Part shown: in pieces, positions 1,650 through 54,227 of the stretch
Layout: every line of letters begins with the position of its first letter
Numbering within the stretch: position 1 is the stretch's first letter
DNA from: Pseudomonadota bacterium
Lineage (GTDB): Bacteria > Pseudomonadota > Alphaproteobacteria > Paracaedibacterales > CAITNM01
Assembly (NCBI GenBank): GCA_046309815.1
Contig: JBKCOJ010000010.1
Location: forward strand, 6,997-70,996
Reading direction: 5' to 3'
Length of the DNA stretch: 64,000 bases
Notes under the pieces: model-generated
Told to the model about the DNA's origin: nothing
The model's database searches: none
What the model saw: the letters and a program-made list of their open reading frames with translations, nothing else
Translations under genes and position numbers: made by a program

Positions 1650-2063
1650 ATGAAAGTTATACATTTCACTTTAGAATCTATTGGCCAAGCAGCACGAGAG
1701 GTGAGTTTTTTGCTCAAGCCTGGAATGCCATTGCTGCTGTATGGAGAAATGGGCGCTGGAAAGACAACGCTTACAAAGCATATTGTACTGTCACTTGAGT
1801 GCTGTGAAGAAGTTACAAGCCCTACGTTTACGATTATGCAATCTTATGTGACAGTTCTTGGTACATTATGGCACATTGATTTGTACAGGTTGGATGAGCA
1901 TTCGACAGATGAACTTGGACTGGAAGAGCTTAATAAGCAAGACATGATGATTGTTGAATGGCCTGAAAGATTAAGAGCAAAATTTTTTTTAACGTATACA
2001 AAGGCAACATTAAAAGTTCTTGAAAATGGTACTCGAGAATTAGTGTTGGAGGTAGTGAATTGA
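1650..2063 (+). CDS. tsaE: tRNA t6A37 threonylcarbamoyl-adenosine biosynthesis ATPase TsaE
   Basis: P-loop GEMGAGKTTLTK, SPTFTI and HIDLYRL motifs typical of YjeE/TsaE. The ORF track starts at GTG 1575, but internal ATG 1650 (MKVIHF) fits the family length better. Confidence 0.85.
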   Translation: MKVIHFTLESIGQAAREVSFLLKPGMPLLLYGEMGAGKTTLTKHIVLSLECCEEVTSPTFTIMQSYVTVLGTLWHIDLYRLDEHSTDELGLEELNKQDMMIVEWPERLRAKFFLTYTKATLKVLENGTRELVLEVVN

Positions 2064-3040
2064 GCGAACGTAGTCCTGATTTTTTAAACAAGTATGATAA
2101 TTTTGAAAAGCAGTATTTAACAGCGGATTTTTCTCCACGCAAATATTTTAGATGGATAAACGGCGGATCTACTTTTGTGTTAATGGATTGTCCAAACATT
2201 GATTCATTAAAAGCATTTATGCGAATGGATAAGTATTTAATATCTCAAGGTTTAAGTGCGCCTGAGATTATTGAAGCAGATGAAGAGAATGGGTATTTGC
2301 TTTTGGAAGATTTCGGTGATGCGACTTATACAAAAGTTTTGCAAACAAGTCCTCAACGAGAGCAAGAACTTTATACATCGGCGGTTGATGTATTGATACA
2401 TTTGCAAGAGCGCAGTGATACAACAGTATCCTTTGTAAAAGACTATACAGTTGAGTTTGGGCTTACTAAGGTGGAACAATTTTTACTTCATTATTATCCC
2501 AAAGTGATGAACGAAGATGTATCAGAAATAGATAAAAATAGTTATTTGAATTCGTGGAAAAGCGCTTTGGAGTTAGCTTTGCAGACAAAAAAAAGTATTT
2601 TTATGCGCGATTATCACGTGGATAATTTGATGGATTTAAAAGAAAGGGCCAGGCCAAAAAATGTTGGTTTGCTCGACTTTCAAGATGCTGTCTGGGCCCC
2701 TGTAGCAGGAGATTTAGTCTCTTTACTCGAAGATGCGCGCAGGGAGGTTTCAGTAGAGTTAACAAATCACTTATGGAAAAGATTTTTAGATGCGCATCCT
2801 AAAGGCGATCACCAAGAAATTTATGTGGCTGGTCTTATTCTAAGTGCAGTTCGTCATGCGCGTATTTTAGGACTTTTTACAAAAGTTGCGGTTGAGCGTG
2901 GTGATAAAAGATTTTTAAAACAAATTCCTCATTTGTGGAACATGTTGAACCGATGCTGCTTGATTGAGGAATTGAAGCCTGTGCGGCAGTGGTTTGATAT
3001 ACATGTACCGAACGCAAAGCGAGTAATTCCTATATTATGA
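2060..3040 (+). CDS. amgK: aminoglycoside-phosphotransferase-fold kinase, AmgK-like (anomeric MurNAc/GlcNAc kinase)
   Basis: APH-fold catalytic motifs (RDYHVDNLM, LLDFQDA). TTGA overlap with tsaE and ATGA overlap with the downstream nucleotidyltransferase, giving the tsaE-amgK-murU order known in alphaproteobacteria. Confidence 0.7.
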   Translation: MSERSPDFLNKYDNFEKQYLTADFSPRKYFRWINGGSTFVLMDCPNIDSLKAFMRMDKYLISQGLSAPEIIEADEENGYLLLEDFGDATYTKVLQTSPQREQELYTSAVDVLIHLQERSDTTVSFVKDYTVEFGLTKVEQFLLHYYPKVMNEDVSEIDKNSYLNSWKSALELALQTKKSIFMRDYHVDNLMDLKERARPKNVGLLDFQDAVWAPVAGDLVSLLEDARREVSVELTNHLWKRFLDAHPKGDHQEIYVAGLILSAVRHARILGLFTKVAVERGDKRFLKQIPHLWNMLNRCCLIEELKPVRQWFDIHVPNAKRVIPIL

Positions 3041-3744
3041 TGAATATTTCTTCCACCGCAATGATATTAGCAGCAGGGTTTGGTAAACGCCTTGGAGATA
3101 TCACAAAAAATACGCCGAAACCGCTGGTATCGATTGGCGATACATGCTGTTTAGACATATCCGTCAATGCATTAAAACAAGCAGGTTTTAAGCGAATTAT
3201 TATTAATACGCATTATCTTGCTGAGCAGATTGAAGCGTATGTAAAATGTTATCGTGATGTGGAAATCATTTTAAGTCATGAAGAGGTGCTTCTTGAAACA
3301 GCGGGAGGCATTCGTAAGGTGCTAGAAGAATTTGGTGATAAACCTTTTGTGGTGATAAATGCGGATATGTATTGGCAAGATACGAATCCTTCGGTGATTC
3401 ATCGTATGGCTAAGGGGATGCGAGAAATGGATGATTTTTGCTTATGCGTCACGCCGCTTGAAAATGCACAAGGTCATCCAGGTAAGGGAGATTTTGTATT
3501 TGAAAATGGACAAATGCGCAAACCAACAGAGTCTGATTCGGTGCAGGATCGTTATGTATACATAGGCGTGCAATTGGTTAATCCAAGAATTATAGCACCT
3601 TTGAAAATAGAACCGCTGGCATTGCCAGGCTTGTATGCAAAAGCTTTACAACAGCAATCTTTAAAAGGCTGTATTTTTGAAGGTACCTGGATTGATGTGG
3701 GTAGTATTGAGGGTCTGACATTAGCAAGAAATTTAAGCGCATAA
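3037..3744 (+). CDS. murU: nucleotidyltransferase, MurU-like (MurNAc-1-phosphate uridylyltransferase)
   Basis: N-terminal ILAAGFGKRLGDITKNTPKPLV sugar-nucleotidyltransferase motif. 235 aa, coupled to the amgK-like gene. Confidence 0.7.
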   Translation: MMNISSTAMILAAGFGKRLGDITKNTPKPLVSIGDTCCLDISVNALKQAGFKRIIINTHYLAEQIEAYVKCYRDVEIILSHEEVLLETAGGIRKVLEEFGDKPFVVINADMYWQDTNPSVIHRMAKGMREMDDFCLCVTPLENAQGHPGKGDFVFENGQMRKPTESDSVQDRYVYIGVQLVNPRIIAPLKIEPLALPGLYAKALQQQSLKGCIFEGTWIDVGSIEGLTLARNLSA

Positions 3745-3840
3745 GATATTGCATAAAGCTTATTAAACAATTTTGCATTAACGAATTATTAAGGCAAATC
3801 ATGAGATCATAAAGATACTTAATAGGCATCTTTATGCAAA

Positions 3841-4248
3841 ATGGTTGGTATTGTATTTATTTTGTTTTTAGTGACGCATACACTGCACGCTGAGATGGAT
3901 GAGCAAAACGGAAAACGTTCTGCAAAAAATGCTTTTGTGTCAATGCGAAATACTTGGGAAGCCCTGAAGGAAGAAGCGGAGCTAAAAAAGAAAAGGAAGT
4001 TTGGTCTTGGTAATACAGCCAATAAAGACTCAAGTAAGCAAAATACACGCCAATTAACACCAGTTAAAGTTTCTATGCTAGAAGATAAAGTTCGCTTAGC
4101 GAGCTATGAACCAGTTGCATACAAACCAGGAAAGAATTTAGATCTCACTCCTCCTCAAGAGCAGCTTAAATTAAGAACTGAAGTGCGCCATCATGAATAT
4201 ATAGCTCACCAACCTTTGAAACCGATGTATCTACGTGTCTCGGAATAA
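3841..4248 (+). CDS. hypothetical Lys-rich secreted protein (135 aa)
   Basis: Signal-like N-terminus MVGIVFILFLVTHTLHA. Low-complexity basic body. No family recognised. Confidence 0.4.
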   Translation: MVGIVFILFLVTHTLHAEMDEQNGKRSAKNAFVSMRNTWEALKEEAELKKKRKFGLGNTANKDSSKQNTRQLTPVKVSMLEDKVRLASYEPVAYKPGKNLDLTPPQEQLKLRTEVRHHEYIAHQPLKPMYLRVSE

Positions 4249-4326
4249 CGCTTTCTATTGATTTTTTGTTAATAAAAAATTTATTAAATTTTATCATAAT
4301 AAAAAGAAAAATTAGAATAAAAAACA

Positions 4327-6174
4327 GTGAGCTCATCAAGCGCCTTTAACACATTAGATTTTCTTAAGCCTTTGCAACGAGCTCGATTAGCGACTGTGGC
4401 AGTTGAGGAAATTGTGCTTGCAGGTGAGACAATTTTTAAAGAAGGAGCATCATCTGAATTTTTTTATGTATTGCTTTCTGGAAAAGTTGAGCTAAAAAAC
4501 AAAATTCGAAAAGAGCTTATTCACAGAGATAATTTTTTTGGAACAGAAGTACCTTGTGGAATTGAGCAGTATCTTTTTACTGCTGTAGCTAAAAGTAAAT
4601 GCAAACTTTTAAAAATAAAAAAAGATATTTTGTACGATACAATTGATCATCTAGATTTACAAAAATTTCAGAAGCGCTTTTTACAAAATTTCGTTGGTGC
4701 ATTTTATCCTAAAAATTTTCTTGTGTTTAAGAAGGATTCTGTAGAGCGGTTATTTGCTCAAGCAGATCGATTTTGGATTGATTGCATAGGTTGGGTATTA
4801 GCGGCAATTGTTCCTTTTATTACCCATTGGTTGCTTAGTAAAACTACGATGAATAATCAGAGTATGATATTTTTATCTGTTTTATCTGCGTGGTCGGTGA
4901 TTGCTTCTTTTCGTTTGATGTCAGATTATGTTGCAACCATGGCAACGATTTTCCTCCTAATTGGTGGAGGTGTTGTTAAAACAAAAGTTATTTTAGCTGG
5001 ATTTAGTTCCAGTAATTTTATTGTAGCATTAAGTCTTTTAGGGCTATCAAGTGTCCTTGTTTCTTCAGGTGTGATATACCGAATTCTTTTAAAAATCTTA
5101 AAGTTTTGCTCGCCTTCTTACTGGAGAGATAATCTTATTTTATTAAGTATAGGGGGCTGGTTGACGCTGGGAGTGCCTGCCTTTTTATTGCGCATGGATA
5201 TGATGAAAATCTTTTACCAGGATACATTACGTATTCGCAATATTGCAGAAGGTACAAATCAAGCGCGAGCGATGGGATTTAGTGCTTATTGTGGGGCAGG
5301 CATTTTTTCACAAAGTATTTTAAGTGCCTCTATGATGCATTTTGTTTTATTGGGGTTATTTTGGGGGCAATACGCTAGTCGATTTGATTGGTGGGGTTGG
5401 TTTTTTGCTTCTTTAGGTTCTCTGGCCGTTCTTCTTTCTGGTTATCTTTTTATTCTTTTTACGTTTTTTGGAAGAAATGTAAAGACCGCAAAACCTAGTA
5501 AAAATAGTCCTTATTTAGATGATATTTTAAAGATTTTAGGGCCGACATCTTCTACGGAAAAAGCATCTCTTATTTGTATGATTGGTGCGATTATTAGCCT
5601 CGCAACCGTTAGTTTGCACGATATAGAGCCTGATGTTATTTGCTTGCTAATCTTACTTTTTCTTTTTACGTTTCAATTTATGAACGATAAAGGATTTCAA
5701 ACGCGCATCAAGTGGGATTTTTTGATTTTTATGTGCGGATTATCTGGTATTGCTTTTGCAGCCAGTGATGTGGGTTTAATTGGTTGGCTTGAAGACAATA
5801 CAAAATGGATGGGCGAATATTTAAATCATCATTTTTTTGAATTAACTACTTTTATGATTCTATTTACATTAGCGGTGCAGTTGATTCTGCCCCGAGATGT
5901 GAATATCAACATCTTGAGCATTATGTTTATCCCCTTATTTCAAAAAAATGGTGTGAGTCCATGGGTGGCGGTTTTCATCGTAAATACTATTGGAAGAATA
6001 TGGTTTTTAGAATATCAAGAGCCAGAGTATACTGTGTTTTTAAGACAGTCAAAAAATTTCTCAGCTAAAGCTGCAAAGAGTCTCAAAAGGGCTCGTATGT
6101 ACTTAAATATTTTTTACGTTATTTCCATTTATGTTGGGATTTTCTACTGGAAATGGATAGGAGTTTTGCAATGA
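4327..6174 (+). CDS. cyclic-nucleotide-binding domain fused to an SLC13/DASS-like (ArsB/NhaD superfamily) polytopic permease
   Basis: GTG start. The first ~120 aa look like a CAP/cNMP-binding beta-roll (GETIFKEGASSEFFYVLLSGKVELK). The rest is multi-TM, with segments resembling DASS halves (SDYVATMATIFLLIGGGVV..., IKWDFLIFMCGLSGIAFAASDVGLIGWL). Confidence 0.65.
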   Translation: MSSSSAFNTLDFLKPLQRARLATVAVEEIVLAGETIFKEGASSEFFYVLLSGKVELKNKIRKELIHRDNFFGTEVPCGIEQYLFTAVAKSKCKLLKIKKDILYDTIDHLDLQKFQKRFLQNFVGAFYPKNFLVFKKDSVERLFAQADRFWIDCIGWVLAAIVPFITHWLLSKTTMNNQSMIFLSVLSAWSVIASFRLMSDYVATMATIFLLIGGGVVKTKVILAGFSSSNFIVALSLLGLSSVLVSSGVIYRILLKILKFCSPSYWRDNLILLSIGGWLTLGVPAFLLRMDMMKIFYQDTLRIRNIAEGTNQARAMGFSAYCGAGIFSQSILSASMMHFVLLGLFWGQYASRFDWWGWFFASLGSLAVLLSGYLFILFTFFGRNVKTAKPSKNSPYLDDILKILGPTSSTEKASLICMIGAIISLATVSLHDIEPDVICLLILLFLFTFQFMNDKGFQTRIKWDFLIFMCGLSGIAFAASDVGLIGWLEDNTKWMGEYLNHHFFELTTFMILFTLAVQLILPRDVNINILSIMFIPLFQKNGVSPWVAVFIVNTIGRIWFLEYQEPEYTVFLRQSKNFSAKAAKSLKRARMYLNIFYVISIYVGIFYWKWIGVLQ

Positions 6175-7235
6175 TCAATAATATTGATACAGCTAAACGC
6201 AGAACTTCATTTTTACAGTTGCTAAAGGGAATAGTTTTTTCAAGCCTTTTAGGTTTACTTTTTCTCTATAATTTTAATCGACCAAGAATCATGATTGTAC
6301 ACAGTTATGACCCGACAATGGATATTGTTAAAGATTTTGATAATGGCGCAAAGAAAACTCTTGAAAGTGAAATAGAGCCACTATTGCAGACTTACTACCT
6401 TAATATGGTCAACAAGAGCACAATGAAAAAAAAAGTTGATGCGGGTAAGGAAGCAAGAATTTCTATTAATCGTTTTAGTCCTAATGTGCTTATTGCTGTA
6501 GGTGACGAAGCGCAGGAATTTGTAGCACAGTTCTACCTTAATCATAAGAAAGTAAAAATAATTTTTGCAGGCATTAAAGGAGATGTAAAAAAATTCAATT
6601 ATATACCCGGAGAAAATGTTGAAGGAGTTATTGAAATTCCGCAAATCAATGAACTGAATATTCTTATCAAAACCATGTTTCCAAATAAAAAAAATATTAG
6701 GCTTGCGCATTTAGGCGATAGGTCGACTATCGTGAACCTAACAGAACATACTTTAATGCATCATGATTGGGACAATGTGGAATTTGAGGATTCGGTAAAA
6801 GTAACTGATGCCGATAATTTTAAAAGAGCCGCTATATTATTAAATAAACAGTGTGATGTCCTACTCATTTCAAGTTATAAAGGTTTAAAAAGTGAGTTGG
6901 AAAATGATGATGAGATCATTTCAGATGAGCTGATGCAATGGGTGTTGGATAATACGTCTGTTCCTATTATTTCAACCTTAGGGTATGCGGTTGAAGAAGG
7001 GGCGGGAGTTGCGATTGTTTCATCTGCATACGAACAGGGCATGCTGGCTACAGGATTAGCTTTATCCATACTTGCAGAGAAAAAGAAGGTCGAAAGTGTG
7101 ACGTCTAAAGTATTTGCTGTCTATCTCAATGATAATCATATTAAAAAGCGAGGAATTCATATACCGCCAATCTACAGATCTTTTGCTATTGGAACGCAAA
7201 AATTATATGGCTGCGGCAAAGAGGCTTGCCTATGA
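6171..7235 (+). CDS. membrane-anchored periplasmic binding protein, ABC_sub_bind (PF04392)-like
   Basis: ATG 6171 overlaps the upstream TGA (ATGA) and is preceded by GGAG. One N-terminal TM, then RIMIVHSYDP..., NVEGVIEIP..., VPIISTLGYAVEEGAGVAIV resembling the PF04392 layout. Confidence 0.55.
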   Translation: MINNIDTAKRRTSFLQLLKGIVFSSLLGLLFLYNFNRPRIMIVHSYDPTMDIVKDFDNGAKKTLESEIEPLLQTYYLNMVNKSTMKKKVDAGKEARISINRFSPNVLIAVGDEAQEFVAQFYLNHKKVKIIFAGIKGDVKKFNYIPGENVEGVIEIPQINELNILIKTMFPNKKNIRLAHLGDRSTIVNLTEHTLMHHDWDNVEFEDSVKVTDADNFKRAAILLNKQCDVLLISSYKGLKSELENDDEIISDELMQWVLDNTSVPIISTLGYAVEEGAGVAIVSSAYEQGMLATGLALSILAEKKKVESVTSKVFAVYLNDNHIKKRGIHIPPIYRSFAIGTQKLYGCGKEACL

Positions 7236-8167
7236 AGATTATTCTTTTTCTTATTTTGTTATCTTCATGGTATTGCGTTGAAGGTAGAATTCAAGTATGT
7301 CAAACAGGGTCTTCTTCCGTGTATCCTTTTGCGATGAAAGTTGCTCAAGAATTTTTTAAAAAAACAAAGCATCTCGCACCCCTAATTGAAAGCACAAGCA
7401 CAGGAAGAGGTTTCGTTGACTTTTGTCTTGAAAATGATTTTTGGTATGACGTTATCAGTGCCTCTAGACCTATTAAAGATCAAGAGCTTGAACAATGCAA
7501 AGGCAGGTCCAGGGTGCCAATTTTGGAAATATGCATTGGTCTTGATGGAATCGCAGTTGCTGTAAAGAAGAGTTCAAAGGGTTTTGAAAGCCTTCGTTTG
7601 CAAGATTTATTCAAAGCTATTGTTAAGAAAATCAAGGATAATGATGGGGTATTAGTTGATAATCCCTATAAAAAATGGAGTGAGATTAATCCTAAATTGC
7701 CAAATATACCTATTCGTATTTTGATACCTTCCAAAGCGCATGGCACACGGGATGCCTTTGAACATCTTGTACTTGGAGGAGAACATGAAATTAGAGACAG
7801 CCAAGAAGTGAGAGAAATTACTGATTATGAGTCAGCAGATAGTCATAATTTACTTTTTGAGTTTCTTGAGCGTAATTCAGGGACGCTAGCATTTGTTGGA
7901 ATGAATCTTTTAAGTAATCATACATCTGTTAAGCCTTTGCCAATCAATGCGATAGAGCCGACTTTTATTAATATGCAGCAACAACGATATCCGCTGGTGC
8001 GAAAATTATTTATTTATTTACGAAAAGAAAACTATAGAAGAGTAGATAGCCTTAAACCTTATATAAACGAGTGGCTAAGCGCCGATGCTAGTGGTGAAGA
8101 GGGCTATCTTACAAAAATGGGATTGATCCCACTCTCAAGAAGCTCTCAAAGGCAGAGAATTCTTTAA
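7232..8167 (+). CDS. PstS-family (PBP_like_2) periplasmic phosphate/anion-binding protein
   Basis: ATG 7232 overlaps the upstream TGA (ATGA), with AGAGG upstream. Signal peptide, then GSSSVYPFA and GTRDAFE motifs typical of PstS-like binding proteins. Confidence 0.75.
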   Translation: MKIILFLILLSSWYCVEGRIQVCQTGSSSVYPFAMKVAQEFFKKTKHLAPLIESTSTGRGFVDFCLENDFWYDVISASRPIKDQELEQCKGRSRVPILEICIGLDGIAVAVKKSSKGFESLRLQDLFKAIVKKIKDNDGVLVDNPYKKWSEINPKLPNIPIRILIPSKAHGTRDAFEHLVLGGEHEIRDSQEVREITDYESADSHNLLFEFLERNSGTLAFVGMNLLSNHTSVKPLPINAIEPTFINMQQQRYPLVRKLFIYLRKENYRRVDSLKPYINEWLSADASGEEGYLTKMGLIPLSRSSQRQRIL

Positions 8168-8214
8168 ATATTTACTTGGCATGACTCTTGCATAAAGTAG
8201 CAAAAGGAGTAGTC

Positions 8215-8961
8215 ATGCTTAAGCTTCTAATAGCGATACATTGTTATTTTTTGTGTCTTTTTGCAAATCCACAATATAATTCTTTTCTTAAAATGCAGGA
8301 AAAGGCACATGGTATTCCTCCGTCTTTGCTGCAGGCTATTTCTCATGTTGAATCAGGAAGAAAAGTAGCAGGAAAGATTACTCCATGGCCTTGGACCATC
8401 AATGTTGAAGGGAAAGGGTATATTTTTGAGACAAAGCAAAAAGCCATTCAAGCAGTTGAAAAATTTCAACGGATGGGAGCAAAAAGCATTGATGTAGGAA
8501 TTATGCAAATTAATTTGCGTCACCATCCTCATGCATTTCATAATCTTGAAGAGGCTTTTGATCCTCAATTAAATATTGCTTATGGTGCTAAATTTTTAAA
8601 GCAATTATTTCTGCAGCATAAGAGCTGGAATCTTGCTGTAGGTCATTACCATTCAGCAACACCAAAGTTTCATAATGCTTATAAGCAAAGGGTATTTTCA
8701 AATTGGTCGCATCTTACTCATGCAAAAGATCAACCTCGAATTGAGCGTGCTGTTATGAAATTTGATGAGGTGGAAACCGAAGAACCGGCAAAGCCAAAAG
8801 TGGTCAGGAGGTCAGTGCCCCAAGAAATACGTCCTTTCGCAAAAGTAACAAAAGTTTATTATTCTCTTGATTCGACGGGGCCATCTGAGCCTTTAACGCC
8901 TGTAAAAACAAGTTATACATTAGAAAACTCACGAGATAAGCAGTATTATTCCCTAGATTAG
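8215..8961 (+). CDS. lytic transglycosylase (SLT domain) with C-terminal extension
   Basis: ISHVESGR...PWPWTINVEGKGY...DVGIMQIN...AVGHYHS motifs. AAGGAG lies 5 nt before ATG 8215 (the track ORF starts at TTG 8188). Confidence 0.8.
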   Translation: MLKLLIAIHCYFLCLFANPQYNSFLKMQEKAHGIPPSLLQAISHVESGRKVAGKITPWPWTINVEGKGYIFETKQKAIQAVEKFQRMGAKSIDVGIMQINLRHHPHAFHNLEEAFDPQLNIAYGAKFLKQLFLQHKSWNLAVGHYHSATPKFHNAYKQRVFSNWSHLTHAKDQPRIERAVMKFDEVETEEPAKPKVVRRSVPQEIRPFAKVTKVYYSLDSTGPSEPLTPVKTSYTLENSRDKQYYSLD

Positions 8962-8998
8962 GTATCAATGGTTATAGTATTTGGAAAATAGATAGCTA

Positions 8999-9889
8999 GT
9001 GCGTCCTATGACTGATTTTGAAAATACCATTACCTGTCTTTATGGAGATGAAGGGCGGTTGTGGCTTGAGAACTTACCCAATATCGTTAATAATTTAGCA
9101 CATCGATGGCAGTTATCAGAACTGCATCCTATTGATAATCTTTCCTATAACTACGTAATGTCAGGTTGGCAAAAGGAAAAACCTATTATTCTAAAATTAG
9201 GGTGTGATCCCAAAAGTTTTAAAAATGAAATTCAAGCATTAAAAGCTTTCAAAACTTTTGGAGCTATGACTGTGCTAGATCAAATGGAAGACGTTCTTCT
9301 GCTTGAGCGTGCACAACCTGGCTTATCGTTGAAATGTTATTTTCCGGATCATGATTTAAAGGCTGTGAGTATCGCTTGTGAAGTAATGAAAAAGCTGCAC
9401 ACTGCGCCCTATCCTGAGTATGAGTTTCCTACCATAAAAGATTGGTTAACTGTATTGGATAAAGATCACGAATTATTTATGCCGCAACTTGCAAAAGCTC
9501 GAGTTCTTAAAAATGAATTATTAAACACGATGGAGCATTCCATTTTATTGCATGGAGATTTTCATCACGAGAATATTCTTGAGCATGAAGGAGAGTGGAA
9601 AGTTATTGATCCACAAGGAGTGATAGGCGAGCGGGCTTATGAAGTTGGTTGTTTTATGCGTAATCCGAAAGAATTAATCAAGCATCCAGATTGTCTTTAT
9701 TTTTTGAAAGATAGAATTCATGCATTTGCAAAACATTTAGATCTTGATCCTGTACGTATTGCGAAATGGTGCTACATTCAGGCCATGTTGTCAGCCGTTT
9801 GGTCGTATGAAGATAATTTATCTTACGAAAGTGCGTTGAAATTCGTATCATTATTCGAACAGCTTCTCGATGCTAGTTGGGGATTTTGA
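8999..9889 (+). CDS. APH(6)/StrB-family aminoglycoside (streptomycin-type) kinase homologue
   Basis: LLLERAQPG, ILLHGDFHHENIL and VIDPQGVIGERAYE motifs match the APH_6_hur family pattern. Confidence 0.7.
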   Translation: MRPMTDFENTITCLYGDEGRLWLENLPNIVNNLAHRWQLSELHPIDNLSYNYVMSGWQKEKPIILKLGCDPKSFKNEIQALKAFKTFGAMTVLDQMEDVLLLERAQPGLSLKCYFPDHDLKAVSIACEVMKKLHTAPYPEYEFPTIKDWLTVLDKDHELFMPQLAKARVLKNELLNTMEHSILLHGDFHHENILEHEGEWKVIDPQGVIGERAYEVGCFMRNPKELIKHPDCLYFLKDRIHAFAKHLDLDPVRIAKWCYIQAMLSAVWSYEDNLSYESALKFVSLFEQLLDASWGF

Positions 9890-11144: not shown

Positions 11145-12461
11145 TTAGGCAATTTTACTTTCTAAAGGTATTTTTTTCTCAGAGTTTGTATTTTGTTCTA
11201 ACGATTTTTCTTGATTTTCTAATTTTTCAAAGTGCCTAAGACCAAGAATATATCCTAAAAAGACAGGGCAAGAGATGATAAGAGTTCCCCAACTGCCTAA
11301 GTGCCGCGTTAGATAAACGAGACCAAAAGATGCAATAACATAAGTTACAGCGCGCGATAAGGCATAGGTAAAGCTAATATAGGTGAAGCGCTTTAACACT
11401 GGAAAATACTTATAAAAAATAGAAGTTGCAGGGGAGGCATCTGCTGCGAAGAAGATAATACTAGATTGCAGCAAAAGAACATGCACATTATTTTGGAGGT
11501 GATTGAGCCAATAGGGAAAACTTAGCATGATGAGGGCTGATATAATAAATTTAACTTTTAAAATTTTTAAAGGGTATACCCGATAACTTAAAAAAACGAA
11601 TAATAAGTATGTACTAATTTGCACGATGGAAACGATAAAATTTTGGTGAATAATCTGTTCAGGGCTGTAACTAAACGAGTCCTTTAGAACAATGCCACAA
11701 TGCATGTAAGAAAGGTAAAAGCATAAAGGCCACATGCAATCCATTGAGAATAAGGCGAGTAGATTTTTATAACATACCTTTTCCTGCTTGTTGGGCTGGG
11801 TTTTTTGAGGTCGGCCGGCTTTACGCTTTGCTTCTGTAAAGTCAGGGGTCTCTCGTAAAAATACTCTTGCTGCTGCACCTACAAGAGCAATGATAGCTCC
11901 TACTCCAAAAATAATACGCCAATTAAGTCCACAGTATGTTACAAGGGAGGCAACGGCTAAGGATGCTCCTCCGCCTATAGCTGACGCAAAGGCAAGCAAA
12001 GCAACAGCAGAATATTTTGCAGGTGCATTAATAACTTCGCTTAAATATAGTTGAGCGCCAGTAAGCTCTCCCATCGCGGACATTCCTTGCACAATGCGGC
12101 ATATTGTGACAATCCAGGAAGCAACGATTCCAATTTGTGCATAGGTGGGAAGGTTTGCCATAAAAACACAAGACAATGACATGAACATAATAGTTAAAAT
12201 AACGGTGACTTTACGCCCAACATAATCTCCTATAAAGCCAAAAATAAGAGCTCCTATAGGCCTAAATATATATGTTGTGCAAAATGCAAAGGCCGCAAGT
12301 AGGCTTGCTGTATGGGAGTCTGTCTTTGGGAAGAATAATTCATTCAAAAGAACAGCCATGTGGACATAGAGCATTAAATCGAAATACTCCAGAAATGTGC
12401 CTATCGACAAAAGACCAACAGCCTGTTTTTGCTCTTTATTCAATGAAGTAAATATTTTCAT
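11145..12461 (-). CDS. MFS transporter, ProP-like (osmolyte/metabolite:H+ symporter family)
   Basis: 12-TM MFS profile with GDYVGRKV. Paralogue of the neighbouring gene. Confidence 0.85.
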   Translation of the reverse strand: MKIFTSLNKEQKQAVGLLSIGTFLEYFDLMLYVHMAVLLNELFFPKTDSHTASLLAAFAFCTTYIFRPIGALIFGFIGDYVGRKVTVILTIMFMSLSCVFMANLPTYAQIGIVASWIVTICRIVQGMSAMGELTGAQLYLSEVINAPAKYSAVALLAFASAIGGGASLAVASLVTYCGLNWRIIFGVGAIIALVGAAARVFLRETPDFTEAKRKAGRPQKTQPNKQEKVCYKNLLALFSMDCMWPLCFYLSYMHCGIVLKDSFSYSPEQIIHQNFIVSIVQISTYLLFVFLSYRVYPLKILKVKFIISALIMLSFPYWLNHLQNNVHVLLLQSSIIFFAADASPATSIFYKYFPVLKRFTYISFTYALSRAVTYVIASFGLVYLTRHLGSWGTLIISCPVFLGYILGLRHFEKLENQEKSLEQNTNSEKKIPLESKIA

Positions 12462-12492
12462 TGGTTAATTTTTCTCCTTCGCGCTATTGAAA

Positions 12493-13809
12493 CTAAGCGA
12501 CAAGTGGCTCCAGATTTTGAGCTGGTGGTCTATTATTTATTTGGTCAAGCTTTTCAAAATGTCTTAATCCAAGCATATATCCAATGCATACCGGTACCAT
12601 AACAATCAAAATACCCCAATTTCCAAATTTCTCTGTTAAATACACTAAGCCAAAAGAAGTTATCACATAAGTTAAGGCACGCGATAAGGCATAAGTGAAG
12701 CTAATGTATGTAAATCGTTTGAAGACGGGGAAATACTTATAAAAAATTGATGTTGCTGGTGCCGCATCTGCTGCGAAAAATATAATAGCTGATTGTAATA
12801 AAAGTAAGTAGAAAGGGTCAGCTATTTGATCAAGCCAATAAGGGCAAGTTATCATGATTAGAAAAGAGACAATGAGTTTAACCTTTAAAATGACAAGAGG
12901 ATAAACTTTGTAGCTCAAAAACACGAATAGTAACAAGCTCAGTATTTGTACCACAGATACGATGAAATTCTGATGGATAATTTGTTCAGGAGTTAAGTTA
13001 AAAGTAGTTTTTAAAAGACCACCACAATAAACGTAGGCAAAATAAAAGCATAAAGGCCACATGCAGTCCATCAAAAATAAGGCTAATGATGTTTTTTGAT
13101 TAACTTTTTCTCGTTCGATGAAGTCTTCCCTAAGTTTTTTGTTCTCAAAATTCTTTTCATTAAAGACTTCTTTTATTCTACGCTTAGCATCGGCGAAATC
13201 TGGTGTTTCTCGTAATTTTGTTCGAGCTACAGCGCCAATAACAGCGATTGTTGCTCCTACCCAAAAGGCGAGACGCCAATTAAGCCCAAATGATGTAACA
13301 AAGGAGGCAAGTCCAAGTGCCGCTGATGTCCCAAGAGAAACAGCAAATGCAAGAAATGCTACGGCTGAGTATCGCGCGGGTGGTTGTAATGTTTCGCTTA
13401 AGTAAAGTTGAGCGCCTGATATTTCTCCCATCGAAGACATTCCTTGGATAATACGACAAATAGTGACAACCCAAGCTGCTGTTATACCAATTTGTGCATA
13501 AGTTGGTAAGTTAGCCATGATTAAGCATGAAAAAGACATCATCGTTGTGGTAATAACAACAGTGACTTTTCTGCCTATATGATCCCCGATATACCCAAAA
13601 ATAAGAGCACCTATTGGACGTAGAAGATATGTTGAGCAAAAGGCAAAAGCAGTTAATAAAGAGGCTGTGTGAGCATCAGTTTTAGGAAAAAAAAGTTCAT
13701 TTAATAATACTGCCATATGAATATAAATCATAAGGTCAAAGTACTCCAAGAAAGTACCTATGGACAGTAAAGCTACTGATTCACCTTGATCTCTGTTTAA
13801 TCCAAACAT
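12493..13809 (-). CDS. MFS transporter, ProP-like (tandem paralogue)
   Basis: Shares long identical blocks with 11145-12461 (LLSIGTFLEYFDLM, IFYKYFPV.KRFTYISFTYALSRA). Start taken at ATG 13809 by alignment with the paralogue (track start is 13827). Confidence 0.85.
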   Translation of the reverse strand: MFGLNRDQGESVALLSIGTFLEYFDLMIYIHMAVLLNELFFPKTDAHTASLLTAFAFCSTYLLRPIGALIFGYIGDHIGRKVTVVITTTMMSFSCLIMANLPTYAQIGITAAWVVTICRIIQGMSSMGEISGAQLYLSETLQPPARYSAVAFLAFAVSLGTSAALGLASFVTSFGLNWRLAFWVGATIAVIGAVARTKLRETPDFADAKRRIKEVFNEKNFENKKLREDFIEREKVNQKTSLALFLMDCMWPLCFYFAYVYCGGLLKTTFNLTPEQIIHQNFIVSVVQILSLLLFVFLSYKVYPLVILKVKLIVSFLIMITCPYWLDQIADPFYLLLLQSAIIFFAADAAPATSIFYKYFPVFKRFTYISFTYALSRALTYVITSFGLVYLTEKFGNWGILIVMVPVCIGYMLGLRHFEKLDQINNRPPAQNLEPLVA

Positions 13810-14274
13810 ATTTCTACCTGTCTTCATTTGTTGTTAAAACTAGTTAAACTCACAAATCTAAAGAGTGTGTTTTCTAGATTTTTGTAAATTGAAAAGAATA
13901 CACACACCTCAGACATATTTTGCCTTCAATTTAAGAATAGAATCGAAATAGGGAAGATGTCCAATAAGACTTTTATGTTTTGTTAAAAAGGAATTTTTTA
14001 ATAGTGTTTTTTTTAGCATGAGGCCTATCGCTCCAAAAAATAAAAAAAATTTTTGATGCTGAAGTCAAATTTTTGCATTTCATATTGATGAGAAAAATTC
14101 TCTTTAGAGATGCTTTTTTTCATACTTTTAACACAAATATCTCTGCGGATTTGTCTCCTATTTATCATTTCTTGAATATTTAGGCAATACCTAGGTGGCT
14201 TATAATTTTTTAAGAGGTATAAGTTTGCAATCCTTTATTTACTTTAGAGACTAAGAGAAATTTTATTTTTTGAT

Positions 14275-24233: not shown

Positions 24234-25289
24234 GTGACTATGAGTAAAGTATTTATATTTTTAGTGTATTGTTTCGTAAATTTAAACTGTGTGGTAACGA
24301 CTGAAGAGAGTGCAAGTTCAGCAGAAAGAATTTGGCTCAGAAAAGCAAGTGTAGACGATGTAGCCTTGATAGCGCCGTCTGGTGTTGATGAATCTGAAAT
24401 AGAAGAGTTTAAAGGGCAAATAAGAAATCAAATAGAATCTCAAGAAGGTTGCGATATTTGTGGTACGTATCTTGTTTTCAAAGATGATACTAAAATCGGT
24501 TTGGTTACGCTTTCGAATAGTTCGCAAGAATACTATCAAAGCTCTTCTCATATATATGGATTTGATACCGGAGAATATATAGATCGAACTATTTTTCTGG
24601 ATAGAATTTATGTAGGCAAGGGATACTTTCGGCAACTTCATGCTGCAGTAATGGATTTAATAATCCCTTTTATAGGAAGGACTCATAATGTGCTTGGCTT
24701 TGATGGCAAGTTGACAATGAGCAGCAACCCTTTGAAGGGTACAAGAGGATTAATTGACTTGTCTAATATTCCTAGTCTTCGAGCAGGGTTAAAAGCAGGC
24801 GGTACTCTTGCTTGGGTTGATGACGATCATGAACATTGGATTATGGAGTTTCCTGCGAGGATGCCGTCAAATGAAGTAGAAAAAGAGCTTCTAAAAATTG
24901 CTGAAAAAATTATAGATGCGTCTCTTTCGAGCTTTCAAATTAAAAATTCTGAGGAAGTAAAAAAAACGTGTTTGGCAGAAGCTAGTTTATTAATTCAAAA
25001 TGATTTAGAGAATTTCGGAATTTTTGGTGAAAGTGATTTCTTGGAAAGAATAATTGATCAATTTGTTCAAGTTTTTGTGGATGAGAGAAATAAGGAAAAA
25101 ATACGAGAATCACTCGGAACTCGCATGATAACGGATGAGTATACAGATTCACAAAAAGAATTTTTAAATACTCTCATGGAAAAAGTATTGGAAAACTATT
25201 TTCATGAAGAGGGGGCAATACCCTCTACCATAATAGCTCGAGAAGCTCTTTCTACCTATTATTATCCATGGATAAAGCTTTTTAAATGA
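24234..25289 (+). CDS. hypothetical secreted protein with a GNAT-like N-terminal half and a helical C-terminal half
   Basis: Signal-like N-terminus. FLDRIYVGKGYFRQLHAAVMDLIIPFIG resembles GNAT motif A. No confident family. Confidence 0.45.
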   Translation: MTMSKVFIFLVYCFVNLNCVVTTEESASSAERIWLRKASVDDVALIAPSGVDESEIEEFKGQIRNQIESQEGCDICGTYLVFKDDTKIGLVTLSNSSQEYYQSSSHIYGFDTGEYIDRTIFLDRIYVGKGYFRQLHAAVMDLIIPFIGRTHNVLGFDGKLTMSSNPLKGTRGLIDLSNIPSLRAGLKAGGTLAWVDDDHEHWIMEFPARMPSNEVEKELLKIAEKIIDASLSSFQIKNSEEVKKTCLAEASLLIQNDLENFGIFGESDFLERIIDQFVQVFVDERNKEKIRESLGTRMITDEYTDSQKEFLNTLMEKVLENYFHEEGAIPSTIIAREALSTYYYPWIKLFK

Positions 25290-37577: not shown

Positions 37578-38525
37578 GTGTTATTCAAAGCTATAGTGTT
37601 GCTTTTCTTTTCTTCATCTTTTTATCTGTGTTCCTCAACAAAATGGGGGTACGCGCCAGAAGAAGATGATCACGATAAGGCAATTGCTGGAATTATTGAT
37701 ACTGCTGGTTACACAGAGAAGAAAAGTTCAAGAATAGGGCTGCAAACATTACAAGAAATTGTAGAAAGAAATGATGCTGATTTTGATGAAATTATCACTT
37801 TACTAATTGAATATCGGGAAAACGCGGAAGATCTCTTAGATTATATTTTTGATCAAAGGGTCGATATAAATACAAGAATAGACATCGTCAAATATCTTTT
37901 AAATGATTTTGCTTTTAAAAAATATTCTATGAAAATCGGAGATGCCAGTTTAGTGCTATTAGAAGAGCGGATAATAAGAGGGCAAACGAAAGCGGAAATT
38001 GCTGAGGCAATTTTGAGCAAAGCCCACATGGTTGAGTATCACGAGAGAGTAGCTCGGAATGGGGTGGATTTTATTAAAAATGCATCAGTTAACAGTGAAA
38101 CAAAAGCACTCTTAACTCTGGAGATTTTTCTTAGTAGAAATCTAGGCAATTACCACCCAATTGCTGAACGAAAGACGCTTGATAGTTGGGAAAAGCTTTT
38201 GATTGAAGGAGATCTTTCAGAAAAGTTGGACGTTGATGATTGGCAAGGAGCTCCTGAATCTAGAGAGTTATTTGAACTTCGAAAATCAGTTTTTTCTTTA
38301 ACAAAAGAAGTAATAGCAGATAATATTTTGAAAAATCCGTTGTTAGAAACATACCATGAAAAAGCTTTGGGGCACGCTAGTGAGAAACAAGTGAAGGCTT
38401 ATAAAGCAAAGAAAAGAGATTTAGCCTACAAACAAGCTTTAGGGAAAGCGGCTCTGAAAAGAAAAAAAGAAGAACAAAATGGAATCAAAAGAGTGAGAAG
38501 AGTTCCAAGAAAATTAGACTGCTGA
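37578..38525 (+). CDS. hypothetical secreted helical-repeat protein (315 aa)
   Basis: GTG start, signal-like N-terminus, recurring ...IL.N....YHE.A... repeat, basic Lys/Arg-rich tail. Confidence 0.5.
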   Translation: MLFKAIVLLFFSSSFYLCSSTKWGYAPEEDDHDKAIAGIIDTAGYTEKKSSRIGLQTLQEIVERNDADFDEIITLLIEYRENAEDLLDYIFDQRVDINTRIDIVKYLLNDFAFKKYSMKIGDASLVLLEERIIRGQTKAEIAEAILSKAHMVEYHERVARNGVDFIKNASVNSETKALLTLEIFLSRNLGNYHPIAERKTLDSWEKLLIEGDLSEKLDVDDWQGAPESRELFELRKSVFSLTKEVIADNILKNPLLETYHEKALGHASEKQVKAYKAKKRDLAYKQALGKAALKRKKEEQNGIKRVRRVPRKLDC

Positions 38526-38532
38526 TATTCCC

Positions 38533-39303
38533 ATGCGAACAATTCTTTTAAATAGTCTTTGTTTGTATTTTCTCTTGAATGCCTTCTGTTTAGCGATGGA
38601 AGGGCCAGTTCATCATCCAGATTATTATGCAAGGATTACTGGTTATATTTTGGCTGATCAACATTTAGCGGTACATCATCATAAAAATGCAGTGCAAGCA
38701 ATGGGTTACATTGAGGATTCAAGAGTTTCTCCGAGCATCAAAGCAAGTCTTATTAATCAGATTTTTCTTAAAAGTGAACTTGAAAAATTCCAGATGCCCG
38801 CAGCATCTGTGGGAATTACTCTTCTAGAGCAAGGAGTACTTGATAATCGTGATAAAGCAATGCTGGCATTACACTTTTTTACAAAGAGATCTTTAAAAAA
38901 ATATTATCAGCACGAGGTTGCTATAAAGGCGTGGAAAGAATTTTCATCTGATCTAAGCACATACTCTTCAATTTCTCTGGCAAAAGAAGTTATTGCTAGT
39001 ACCATTTTAGAAAACGATAAATTTCGAAAGCATTATGAGCATGCCATTTTAGTTTGGAAAAATCTTAATTTGCACTCACGGGGATTTATGATTTGTAACA
39101 TTTTGATAAACGATGATTTAGTTGCATACCATTCAGAAGCAGAGAAAACTCTTAGGCGTTTTTTCGCTGTTGATAGCGATGTGCCTTTTTATACAAAAAA
39201 GCGATTAGCAGAAATGATAGAAAATACTCGAGGAAAAAGATTGAAAAATGCACGTACGATTGCTGCATCTTATTTAGCCTCTTTGCCTAAGATTAAGATT
39301 TAG
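38533..39303 (+). CDS. hypothetical secreted helical-repeat protein (256 aa), paralogue of 37578-38525
   Basis: Signal-like N-terminus. AKEVIASTILENDKFRKHYEHAILVW parallels TKEVIADNILKNPLLETYHEKALGHA in the upstream gene. Confidence 0.5.
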   Translation: MRTILLNSLCLYFLLNAFCLAMEGPVHHPDYYARITGYILADQHLAVHHHKNAVQAMGYIEDSRVSPSIKASLINQIFLKSELEKFQMPAASVGITLLEQGVLDNRDKAMLALHFFTKRSLKKYYQHEVAIKAWKEFSSDLSTYSSISLAKEVIASTILENDKFRKHYEHAILVWKNLNLHSRGFMICNILINDDLVAYHSEAEKTLRRFFAVDSDVPFYTKKRLAEMIENTRGKRLKNARTIAASYLASLPKIKI

Positions 39304-48122: not shown

Positions 48123-49094
48123 TTATCGCTGATCTAGCTTAAATTCAATGCGACGGTTACGATCAAGATTCGCTACATCCGTATTTAAAGGCTGAAATTC
48201 ACCAAAACCGGCAGCAACCAAATGTTTCCCATCAATGCCTTTTTTAATCATGTATTGCACAACAGCAATGGCACGAGCTGAAGATAGTTCCCAATTTGAA
48301 GGAAATTGCGTGCTTTTGATTGGGCGTTTATCGGTGTGTCCATCAACACGAAGAATCCAATTAATATCAGCAGGAATTTTGTTGCCGATTTCTTTAAGAG
48401 CCTTTATAAGTTCATCCAGCTGCTTTTTCCCTTCTTCGCCAAGTTCAGCTGAGGCCACATCAAAAAGTACTTCTGATTGAAACACAAATCGATCATCAAC
48501 AACGCGTACATCGCTTCTATCTCCCAGTATTTTCTTCAATTGCGCAAAAAATTCTGACCGGAATTGTCCAACTTTGATGGAGTTTTGATGTTTTGCTTGC
48601 TCTGTTTCTAAAGATTGTAAGGCTAGTTGAAGCTTTTTTAGTTCATCTTCTTTTTTTGACGAATCTACTTGTGCTTGATTTAGTAGATCTTGCAATTGCT
48701 TTAAGCGTTCTTCTAGTTTTTCCAGATCAGTTTTTATGCGTTCATTGGTGGTACGTTGTTCAGCATGTTGGCTTTTTTCAAGGCTTAGAGCTTGGGTAAG
48801 TGTTTCTAGTTGCGTGTTAAGATTCTTGATGAGCTCTTCCAGGCTTGTGATTTTTTCTAAGCTTATCAAATGCTCTTTTTTTGCGTCTTCTAAGTCTTTT
48901 TCTAAAGCACGTAGTTGGATATATAAGCTTGAAACTTCGGAATCTTTGGTATTAATTGTTTCAACTAAAAAAACTTGAGAGATGAAAAATGCCATCAATA
49001 CAAAAATAATGGCCATAAGAACGGTAGATAACGCATCTACAAATACAGGCCACACGTTTAGGCTGGCTGGTCTATGCGGCCTGATAAAAAACAT
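48123..49094 (-). CDS. MotB-like / OmpA-family peptidoglycan-binding protein with a long coiled coil
   Basis: N-terminal MotB-like TM (VWPVFVDALSTVLMAIIFVLM), a ~150-aa coiled coil, and a C-terminal OmpA_C motif (NWELSSARAIAVVQYM, NRRIEF). Confidence 0.7.
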   Translation of the reverse strand: MFFIRPHRPASLNVWPVFVDALSTVLMAIIFVLMAFFISQVFLVETINTKDSEVSSLYIQLRALEKDLEDAKKEHLISLEKITSLEELIKNLNTQLETLTQALSLEKSQHAEQRTTNERIKTDLEKLEERLKQLQDLLNQAQVDSSKKEDELKKLQLALQSLETEQAKHQNSIKVGQFRSEFFAQLKKILGDRSDVRVVDDRFVFQSEVLFDVASAELGEEGKKQLDELIKALKEIGNKIPADINWILRVDGHTDKRPIKSTQFPSNWELSSARAIAVVQYMIKKGIDGKHLVAAGFGEFQPLNTDVANLDRNRRIEFKLDQR

Positions 49095-54223: not shown

Positions 54224-54227
54224 GAAT

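Follow-up and report, generated by a model that had tools for sequence, protein, structure and literature searches.

A permease of the DASS family with an N-terminal cyclic-nucleotide-binding-domain (CNBD)-like domain, together with a membrane-anchored binding protein of the PF04392 type, forms a fixed genetic unit that is widespread in Proteobacteria. In the 64 kb stretch of DNA analysed here (the window), these two proteins are encoded with a secreted PstS-family protein in a run of three overlapping genes, hereafter the trio. From its domain content and inheritance, we see an even chance that the trio operates as a binding-protein-dependent, elevator-type secondary anion transporter built on the DASS permease; its substrate in the window's clade would probably be phosphate.

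The trio and its junctions

The window has a GC content of 37.8%; MipZ, a class II ribonucleotide reductase and a tsaE–kinase–nucleotidyltransferase gene order among its genes indicate an alphaproteobacterium. The three open reading frames (ORFs) of the trio all lie on the forward strand, as do the features within them given below. Gene 1 (4327–6174; 615 residues, GTG start) encodes the N-terminal CNBD-like domain, a linker helix and a DASS-fold permease with 11 transmembrane (TM) helices; gene 2 (6171–7235; 354 residues from the ATG at 6171) encodes an N-terminal TM helix followed by a periplasmic PF04392-type (type I) domain; and gene 3 (7232–8167; 311 residues from the ATG at 7232) encodes a secreted PstS-family (PBP_like_2) protein. 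At the first junction (6160–6174) a GGAG (6160–6163) precedes the ATGA (6171–6174) in which the start of gene 2 lies over the stop of gene 1, and at the second (7220–7235) an AGAGG (7220–7224) precedes an equivalent ATGA (7232–7235). Alternative in-frame starts exist at ATG 6153 (gene 2) and TTG 7226 (gene 3); the starts at 6171 and 7232 are preferred because their Shine–Dalgarno spacing fits.

An earlier description of this locus made from the sequence alone (the sequence-only reading) had reported a same-strand trio joined by ATGA overlaps with upstream GGAG and AGAGG, and its coordinates match the sequence; the two peptides that it quoted, FFYVLLSGKVELK and GSSSVYPFA, are both found in the ORF translations. 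Searches with hidden Markov models (HMMs) of the families that it had named gave matches throughout: cNMP_binding and CitMHS for gene 1, PF04392 for gene 2 and PBP_like_2 for gene 3. It was also right that no ABC genes lie near the trio, the only ABC-type genes of the window being an AztA/AztB-like Zn/Mn-type ATPase and permease (53387–54920, reverse strand), 46 kb away.

Conservation of the permease and its anchored partner

An exhaustive profile-free search for proteins related to gene 1 returned 603 cluster representatives (50% clusters), of which 123 match at E ≤ 1e-30. Most members have about 615 residues and the CNBD plus DASS architecture, and a few add GAF, 4HB_MCP or CstA modules. Metagenome loci (79) were fetched with a main-family profile, and all ORFs were scanned with profiles of genes 1, 2 and 3; individual loci are cited below by L numbers. 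In 87 of 96 loci, and in 87 of the 88 with enough DNA, the permease gene has a gene 2 homologue beside it in the same orientation: at eight of the nine loci without one the contig ends at most 90 nucleotides from gene 1, and at L087, the ninth, the gene 2 position is taken by an SBP_bac_3 protein. P0037 and P0038 sit on contigs of insufficient length for neighbouring genes to be seen. Gene 2 mostly lies downstream of the permease gene (upstream in five loci) and is duplicated in two; the two genes overlap by 1 or 4 nucleotides at 46 of 79 junctions.

When pairs were collapsed at 60% identity, 31 independent pairs remained (the lineages referred to below, each under 60% identity to the others), for which the distance matrices of gene 1 and gene 2 correlate with r = 0.85. 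In the reverse test, three gene 2 homologues were drawn from an independent search with a gene 2 profile, and each lies directly 3′ of a DASS gene; one of these DASS genes encodes no CNBD. ABC-ATPase-like ORFs occur in just 4 of 94 loci; none is of the importer type expected for PF04392, and the one that was inspected is of exporter type. The pair is also present in the named isolates Terasakiella sp. SH-1, Endothiovibrio diazotrophicus and Rhabdochromatium marinum. The trio is thus a conserved unit, its order and overlaps being kept in relatives of the window, and family-wide the pair of genes 1 and 2 is what is fixed, gene 3 being a later addition in one sub-branch.

The permease domain of gene 1

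The gene 1 product matches P0001, an 'SLC13 family permease' by its NCBI name, with 100% identity. Its residues 196–516 match CitMHS (PF03600; E 1.7e-8, 34.4 bits vs a cut-off of 31.9), and its relatives score 66–113 bits on Na_sulph_symp (PF00939) and also give weak matches to DctM. The AlphaFold2 (AF2) model (predicted local distance difference test score, pLDDT, 86; predicted TM-score, pTM, 0.83) shows a complete DASS fold, with a scaffold domain and a predicted transport domain carrying two re-entrant hairpins. In Foldseek comparisons (TM-scores normalised to the target), the model scores 0.77–0.81 against NaCT, AtDiT2.1 and VcINDY, with AtDiT2.1 at 0.81, and 0.74 against Pho90; the matches to the TRAP protein SiaQM and to ArsB are weaker, at about 0.68. 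A family profile searched against the PDB ranks the exchangers DiT2.1 (E 2e-19), DiT1 (E 5e-18) and LaINDY (E 4.5e-16) above Na+ symporters, VcINDY following at E 3.4e-8. The HMM match, the profile-to-PDB alignments and the Foldseek fold thus agree on the DASS/SLC13-like character that had been assigned to the polytopic domain.

The membrane domain spans about residues 149–614 (4771–6168) in profile-to-PDB alignments to DiT1/DiT2.1, SLC13A1 and VcINDY. In DASS proteins, two Ser-Asn-Thr (SNT) motifs at the hairpin tips bind substrate and Na+, and in the exchangers an arginine stands in permanently for Na+ at the Na1 site (PMC7553777). The canonical SNT motifs are absent from gene 1 and its family, as seen in both a motif table and alignments. 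The family instead has P-[ST]-x-N-G-R at the tip of hairpin 1, opposite the P-S-x-x-A-R of the DiT proteins, and P-Y-Q in hairpin 2. In the window protein the hairpins read V-P-A-F-L-L-R, within the hairpin-1 tip LTLGVPAFLLRMD (5161–5199), which holds the invariant Pro284 and Arg289, and E-Y-Q-E-P-E, within the hairpin-2 region GRIWFLEYQEPEYTVF (5992–6039), which contains Gln564. Across 40 diverse members, the window protein included, 13 positions are invariant or nearly so, among them Arg252, Pro284, Arg289 and hairpin residues adjacent to Gln564.

Arg289 aligns with the arginine of the DiT1/DiT2.1 P-S-x-x-A-R motif and would be the equivalent of LaINDY Arg159. Because it would sit at the Na1-surrogate position, we infer that the core of gene 1 is exchanger-like and Na+-independent; the histidine that acts as Na2 surrogate in exchangers could not be mapped on gene 1. 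In sequence the protein resembles the exchanger clade (DiT, LaINDY) more closely than the Na+-coupled SLC13 symporters.

The helix at residues 149–168 corresponds by alignment to TM1 of DASS proteins, which places the predicted CNBD on the cytoplasmic side of the membrane. An assignment of helix 139–170 as an additional TM helix, with a periplasmic CNBD, was considered and rejected, the VcINDY alignment starting directly past this helix; its GW...P pattern is SLC13 TM1-like.

The CNBD-like domain of gene 1

The N-terminal domain (residues 31–106; 4417–4644) matches the Pfam family cNMP_binding (PF00027; E 2.8e-10, 40.5 bits vs a cut-off of 27.5), and the corresponding part of the model resembles the CNBDs of PKA-R and HCN in Foldseek comparisons. 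The gating by a cyclic nucleotide suggested by the sequence-only reading, however, finds no support in the sequence. In the phosphate-binding cassette FFGTEVPCGIEQYLFTAVA (4534–4590), Tyr82-Leu83 (4570–4575) stand where Arg-Ser/Thr is expected, with HMMER alignments to PKG and PKA CNBDs setting Tyr82 opposite the cassette arginine and Leu83 opposite the Ser/Thr, and the Gly-Glu of the cassette reads Gly72-Thr73-Glu74. Tyrosine is the family consensus at the arginine column and is dominant in about 250 members, including those encoded beside a cyclase.

Since Tyr82-Leu83 replaces Arg-Ser/Thr, the defining contact to a cyclic nucleotide is missing, and any binding of cAMP or cGMP by this domain would require a non-canonical mode. 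Among domains with the CNBD fold, many take a different ligand or no ligand at all, as in the CRP/FNR and KCNH families. The cyclic-nucleotide idea is kept alive by a gene for a PF04392–adenylate/guanylate cyclase protein, found beside the pair in three loci.

The anchored PF04392 protein

Gene 2 matches PF04392 (ABC_sub_bind, COG2984; E 7.5e-9, 35.7 bits vs a cut-off of 25.9), and its AF2 model (pLDDT 90.9) has a helix at residues 3–35 (6177–6275) followed by a type I binding-protein fold, as expected of the TM-anchored PF04392-like protein that had been proposed. The best Foldseek matches are PF04392 structures, namely 3lkv, 3lft (L-Trp) and CD0873 (top list 3lkv, 3lft, 6hni and 6hnj), to the solved members of which gene 2 is only 15–17% identical; the next neighbours are the sensor co-receptors LuxP, TorT and XylFII, and LacI-type repressors. 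Known ligands of PF04392 proteins are Trp, Tyr and Phe (PMC10443332). All gene 2 homologues share a short basic N-terminus, a single TM helix and a K-P-R-I-L-x-L-H-S-Y motif that opens the binding-protein fold. Neither an ABC permease nor an ATPase is encoded with gene 2 near the trio in the window.

The PstS-like protein and the trio branch

Gene 3 begins with a signal peptide (about residues 1–18; 7232–7285) and matches PBP_like_2 (PF12849) at E 2.1e-25 (90.4 bits vs a cut-off of 27), whilst its TIGR02136 score of 124.7 bits lies under that model's cut-off of 206.6. Every PDB relative of gene 3 is a phosphate-binding protein, the best being 9jwy (E 5.7e-68 with a clade profile), in line with its earlier description as a PstS-type protein. 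At the presumed anion site lie GSSSVYP, an invariant Asp73 and an HGT that substitutes for SGT; in an alignment of the clade, GSS(S/T)V.P and Asp73 are kept, and the HGT position varies (H/R/N). The window contains no pstC, pstA or pstB gene, and none accompanies gene 3 at related trio loci.

Among genomes, gene 1 has its closest relatives (71–83% identity) in metagenome-assembled genomes that carry the labels Candidatus Finniella, Candidatus Odyssella, Alphaproteobacteria or Proteobacteria and belong to Holosporales-type symbionts of protists. All 10 related genome loci, and 2 metagenome loci, have the three genes in unchanged order, with overlaps of 4 to 7 nucleotides between genes 1 and 2 and of 4 nucleotides between genes 2 and 3, the latter being kept in L001–L012 and L095. 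The flanks vary; L001 and L010, unlike the window, have LeuRS upstream and RNase T downstream. Two distant trio loci, in which gene 1 is only about 30% identical, have other surroundings again: the trio of L015 follows dnaX-ybaB-recR-dut, and that of L095 lies between nfuA and a LysR gene. As 10 related loci and two lineages at about 30% identity repeat it, the arrangement is not due to chance. A neighbour-joining tree of gene 1 puts the window's clade, L095 and L015 on one branch, and gene 3 is limited to this one monophyletic sub-branch of Finniella-like endosymbionts and two distant lineages.

Both partners of gene 3 have changed on this branch. Among positions at least 90% conserved in 60 main-family pairs (50 in gene 2 and 87 in gene 1), the window retains 34 in gene 2 and 59 in gene 1, L015 retains 32 and 68, and L095 retains 22 and 53; the corresponding values are 47 and 75 for L096, a sister that has the pair only, and 48.5 and 84 for the main-family median. 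The gene 2 positions lost in the trio branch include those of D-Y-x-W, D-D-x-A-Q, N-V-T-G-x-x-E-R, Y-R and E-D-G-G, loop motifs that are taken to line the predicted binding cleft. In gene 1 the hairpins have taken the form described above for the window protein, and a new H-F-x-x-L-G-L-F-W-G-Q-Y segment is present. Since the gain of the PstS-like gene coincides with the remodelling of both partners, we read the trio branch as one in which the substrate and the role of gene 2 would have changed.

Within the Finniella-like clade, identity to the window is 69–83% for gene 1, 57–73% for gene 2 and 46–63% for gene 3, and all three are intact. Gene 1 homologues at L009:5491–7250 and L011:6001–10630 are split between frames, in L011 together with gene 2 and the SLT gene described below; these could be assembly errors or incipient pseudogenes.

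Other genes beside the pair

Several binding-protein families gather at the permease, and links to phosphate and to cyclic nucleotides occur in a minority of lineages only. L027 represents a main-family lineage and has a GC content of 57%; directly 5′ of its pair, on the same strand (1800–4844), the genes for two PBP_like_2 proteins (273 and 280 residues) and an NMT1_3 (TAXI-like) protein of 449 residues follow one another head-to-tail. A Peripla_BP_6 protein lies upstream of the pair in L030, L041 and L056. At L031:4983–11833 the pair is tandemly duplicated (g1-g2-g1′-g2′) and followed by a PhoX-type alkaline phosphatase gene that is cut by the contig end, which links the module to phosphate scavenging beyond the PstS-bearing branch.

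Directly 3′ of the pair at L023:7918–9939, L024:7882–9927 and L026:7912–9807 lies a gene for a protein of 631 to 681 residues. That of L023 combines a PF04392-like periplasmic domain at its N-terminus with a class III adenylate/guanylate cyclase domain and TPR; the gene 2 profile matches the L023 and L024 proteins (E 1e-26 and 3e-22, respectively), and BLAST groups the L026 protein with these two. This protein could be a sensor cyclase that feeds the CNBD of the permease, despite the tyrosine at the canonical arginine position. A stand-alone CNBD protein is encoded near the pair in L097. The permease of L099 (493 residues) has no CNBD, and the pair is followed there by genes for a DUF294 protein (a putative nucleotidyltransferase) and an HD-domain protein (4520–9459); the regulatory module may be supplied in trans in this locus.

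Proposed mechanism and alternatives

A model for the complex, its substrate, the direction of transport and its gating would run as follows. The anchored gene 2 protein would form a stoichiometric complex with a dimeric DASS permease, docked at the periplasmic face, and would hand substrate over or gate its access, in a manner comparable to DctP/TAXI–DctQM and TAXI–GltS. The permease would probably run without Na+ coupling, since the exchanger-type arginine is kept, and the CNBD-like domain may tune its activity from the cytoplasm in response to a ligand possibly other than cAMP or cGMP. In the window's clade a soluble PstS-type protein would capture phosphate or a phosphoryl compound and pass it on, leaving the partly degenerate gene 2 protein mainly as a membrane-anchored docking subunit; the PstS-like protein is cast as substrate supplier because the arrival of gene 3 was accompanied by changes in the putative ligand-site motifs of gene 2 and in the hairpins of gene 1. 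The link to phosphate comes from the solved relatives of gene 3, the PhoX gene after the duplicated pair of L031 and the structural match to Pho90.

Several observations weigh against this proposal. The permease lacks the SNT motifs, and the window's clade alters even the P-S-x-N-G-R and P-Y-Q motifs of the family, so that transport competence is an assumption of the model. Relaxed selection in reduced genomes, with no change of role, could account for the positions that the endosymbiont clade has lost. For several unrelated families of binding protein to dock on one permease would be unusual, and the structural neighbours of the gene 2 model extend to the sensor co-receptors LuxP, TorT and XylFII. 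P0042, for which the neighbourhood was seen as a gene list only, has no neighbouring binding-protein gene. Fusions of genes 1 and 2 number 0 among 286 family sequences, so that the Rosetta-stone support seen for TAXI–GltS is missing here; fusions of genes 1 and 3 are likewise absent from these 286.

In an alternative arrangement, the DASS protein would carry its substrate by itself and the gene 2 and gene 3 proteins would be periplasmic sensors that switch it on or off allosterically and deliver nothing, the CNBD integrating a cytoplasmic signal. The co-receptors that follow PF04392 structures among the Foldseek neighbours of gene 2 act on membrane partners in the pairs LuxP–LuxQ, TorT–TorS and XylFII–LytS; the fusion of a gene 2-like domain to a cyclase in L023 and L024 indicates that this type of domain is used in sensing; and binding-protein families that vary between lineages fit regulatory inputs better than a single docking surface. 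Nonetheless, near-obligate, one-to-one, translationally coupled pairing in 31 lineages is the usual pattern for stoichiometric subunits, the permease has no output domain beyond its transport domain, and the simplest role for a high-affinity scavenger of PstS type next to a permease is to donate substrate. We consider this arrangement unlikely, albeit the strongest of the alternatives.

More improbable still would be a non-transporting receptor, or 'transceptor', in which a DASS-like scaffold couples periplasmic ligand binding to the CNBD-like domain and to cytoplasmic partners. The absence of SNT motifs, the further alteration of the hairpins in the window's clade with the loss of a third of otherwise conserved positions, and a CNBD without the arginine that binds cyclic nucleotides would all suit such a protein, as would the recurrence nearby of genes related to cyclic nucleotides (the cyclase in L023, L024 and L026, the stand-alone CNBD in L097 and DUF294 in L099). 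However, near-invariance at 13 positions across 40 members is what a functional binding site would produce, the modelled protein has the whole DASS fold, and neither an output domain nor a conserved cytoplasmic partner gene was found in the loci scanned. That genes 2 and 3 are merely local neighbours, orphan partners of COG2984-type and PstCAB importers encoded elsewhere, is scarcely credible: both families are classically ABC partners, but a gene 2 homologue stands by the permease in nearly every informative locus with varied flanks and no importer-type ABC genes, and the order and overlaps of the trio are kept in three lineages at about 30% identity with different neighbours; for gene 2 this reading is essentially excluded.

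Returning to the binding-protein-dependent transporter, we would tentatively, and with confidence a little short of even, extend the proposal to the whole family. The CNBD-like DASS protein and the anchored PF04392 protein, with about 600 clusters at 50% identity, would then be a widespread transporter class that has gone unrecognised, and the Finniella-like branch would have a three-component, ATP-independent uptake system for phosphate or phospho-compounds, in which the PstS-type protein delivers the substrate and the degenerate PF04392 protein is a docking adaptor. If so, a DASS-based system would support the repeated recruitment of binding proteins by elevator-type secondary carriers, and the 'orphan' PF04392 'ABC substrate-binding proteins' and 'SLC13 family permeases' that Proteobacteria have by the hundred would acquire a role. 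Such a system would also provide a bacterial DASS carrier with a fused cytoplasmic regulatory domain, parallel to SPX–Pho90, and in Holosporales-type endosymbionts it could point to an ATP-independent route to host phosphate. As the pair occurs in named isolates, the idea may be directly testable in culture.

Flanking genes and other features

Gene 1 is preceded by an AT-rich spacer (4249–4326, forward strand) with two weak sigma-70-like matches, at 4269–4297 and 4291–4318, which make it a candidate promoter region; a consensus scan for promoters and terminators gave no convincing signal, the regional total of promoter-like matches being below shuffle expectation. Upstream of the spacer lies a 135-residue ORF (3841–4248, forward strand) whose N-terminus resembles a signal peptide and which neither Pfam nor NCBIfam matches. 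Searches with tblastn found matches to it 5′ of gene 1 in L003–L005, L007–L009, L011 and L012, and none in L001, L002, L006 or L010; related upstream ORFs of 120–147 residues form a cluster in 11 loci, and at L015 and L095, the distant trio loci, no such ORF precedes gene 1. Because this ORF is syntenic only within the Finniella-like clade, its membership of the system is doubtful. Downstream, 20 nucleotides past gene 3, starts a gene for an SLT-domain lytic transglycosylase (8188–8961, forward strand; Pfam SLT, E 2.9e-11), which is syntenic in most of the Finniella-like clade. Its absence from L001/L010, L015 and L095 makes it probably a neighbour rather than a component.

The AztA/AztB-like pair in the window has no adjoining binding-protein gene. 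A 352-residue ORF beside it (55023–56081) gives weak matches of the REase_MTES_1575/DUF559 type, and a RAP match barely above the cut-off. Two tandem paralogous MFS transporters of 438 and 444 residues (11145–13827, reverse strand), with matches to MFS_1 and Sugar_tr only, are identical over long stretches near their N-termini and so probably stem from a recent duplication; they may resemble ProP-type osmolyte or metabolite carriers. A FliD-like flagellar cap protein (43934–45811) and a MotB/OmpA-like peptidoglycan-binding protein (48123–49094), both on the reverse strand, indicate that the Holosporales-like bacterium of the window may keep flagellar genes. ORFs of 256–356 residues at 37578–39303, 24234–25289 and 57639–58709 (forward strand) have no Pfam or NCBIfam match, and the remaining candidate ORFs that were checked are unrelated housekeeping genes.

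Among the other loci, a pentapeptide-repeat protein (156–307 residues) is encoded on the same strand, mostly just 5′ of the permease gene, in 11 (e.g. L028:3530–4369). Very large proteins with three TIR domains and WD40 propellers flank the module in three related loci (L074:7532–10189, L076:877–4941 and L077:3857–5326); they may serve in defence or signalling, and nothing obvious ties them to transport. Proteins with an eCIS_core match lie beside the pair in two unrelated loci (L025:7873–9762 and L025:3264–4910; L098:1–4107).

Comparison with known systems

In textbook accounts, binding-protein-dependent uptake is confined to ABC, TRAP and TTT transporters. The literature that could be searched adds to these three the TAXI–GltS system of Bordetella pertussis, proposed in 2025 as a new class from co-localisation, translational coupling, fusions and modelling (PMC12344293). 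Literature searches returned no described system of a DASS protein with a PF04392 protein and no protein combining a CNBD with DASS (SLC13), and none of the papers that mention PF04392 does so in the context of a DASS pairing; the sequence-only reading, which knew of no system with this composition, is borne out to this extent.

One parallel in organisation is TRAP (DctP or TAXI with DctQM; TCDB 2.A.56), which likewise joins a periplasmic binding protein to an elevator-type carrier whose large subunit has the DASS fold, and whose genes are adjacent and co-translated; SiaQM aligns to the gene 1 model at a TM-score of 0.68. Unlike in TRAP, the binding protein fixed beside the permease is a membrane-anchored PF04392 protein (type I, usually an ABC partner) rather than DctP or TAXI, there is no Q subunit, and the membrane protein is a true DASS member, nearest to exchangers, with a cytoplasmic CNBD-like domain. 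DctP, TAXI and DctQ are all absent from the trio, which may operate in the manner of TRAP but stands outside that class, and no TctC-, TctA- or TctB-type Pfam match, as in TTT, is found in it. TAXI–GltS also shows a binding protein recruited to an elevator-type carrier outside TRAP and was recognised by the same signs of co-localisation and translational coupling. The carrier there is of the GltS/ESS family, however, and the binding-protein families differ too; fusion proteins exist for TAXI–GltS and not among the 286 sequences here, the case for the trio being one of comparative genomics and modelling.

A canonical PstSCAB or COG2984 ABC system was considered for the locus and rejected, with no matching ABC genes beside the trio. 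Gene 3 shares its superfamily (PF12849) with the PstS of PstSCAB and keeps GSS(S/T)V.P and the discriminating Asp, whereas it falls under the TIGR02136 cut-off, has HGT for SGT and overlaps a PF04392 gene in an operon with a DASS gene, with no pstCAB in the window.

The exchangers DiT1/DiT2.1 and LaINDY, of the DASS-E clade to which CitT also belongs, are the best sequence and structure matches to gene 1, which keeps their hairpin-1 arginine; they operate alone, with neither a binding protein nor a CNBD, and their second hairpin motif differs. Yeast Pho87, Pho90 and Pho91 differ in being eukaryotic, in having SPX instead of a CNBD, in lacking binding proteins and in a sequence similarity to gene 1 below what a PDB sequence search reports, but share with it an N-terminal cytoplasmic regulatory domain fused to a DASS-fold carrier, in their case for phosphate. 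Outside the definitions of TRAP, TTT, PstSCAB and PF04392-ABC systems, and without SNT motifs, the locus is by both fold and HMM a member of DASS.

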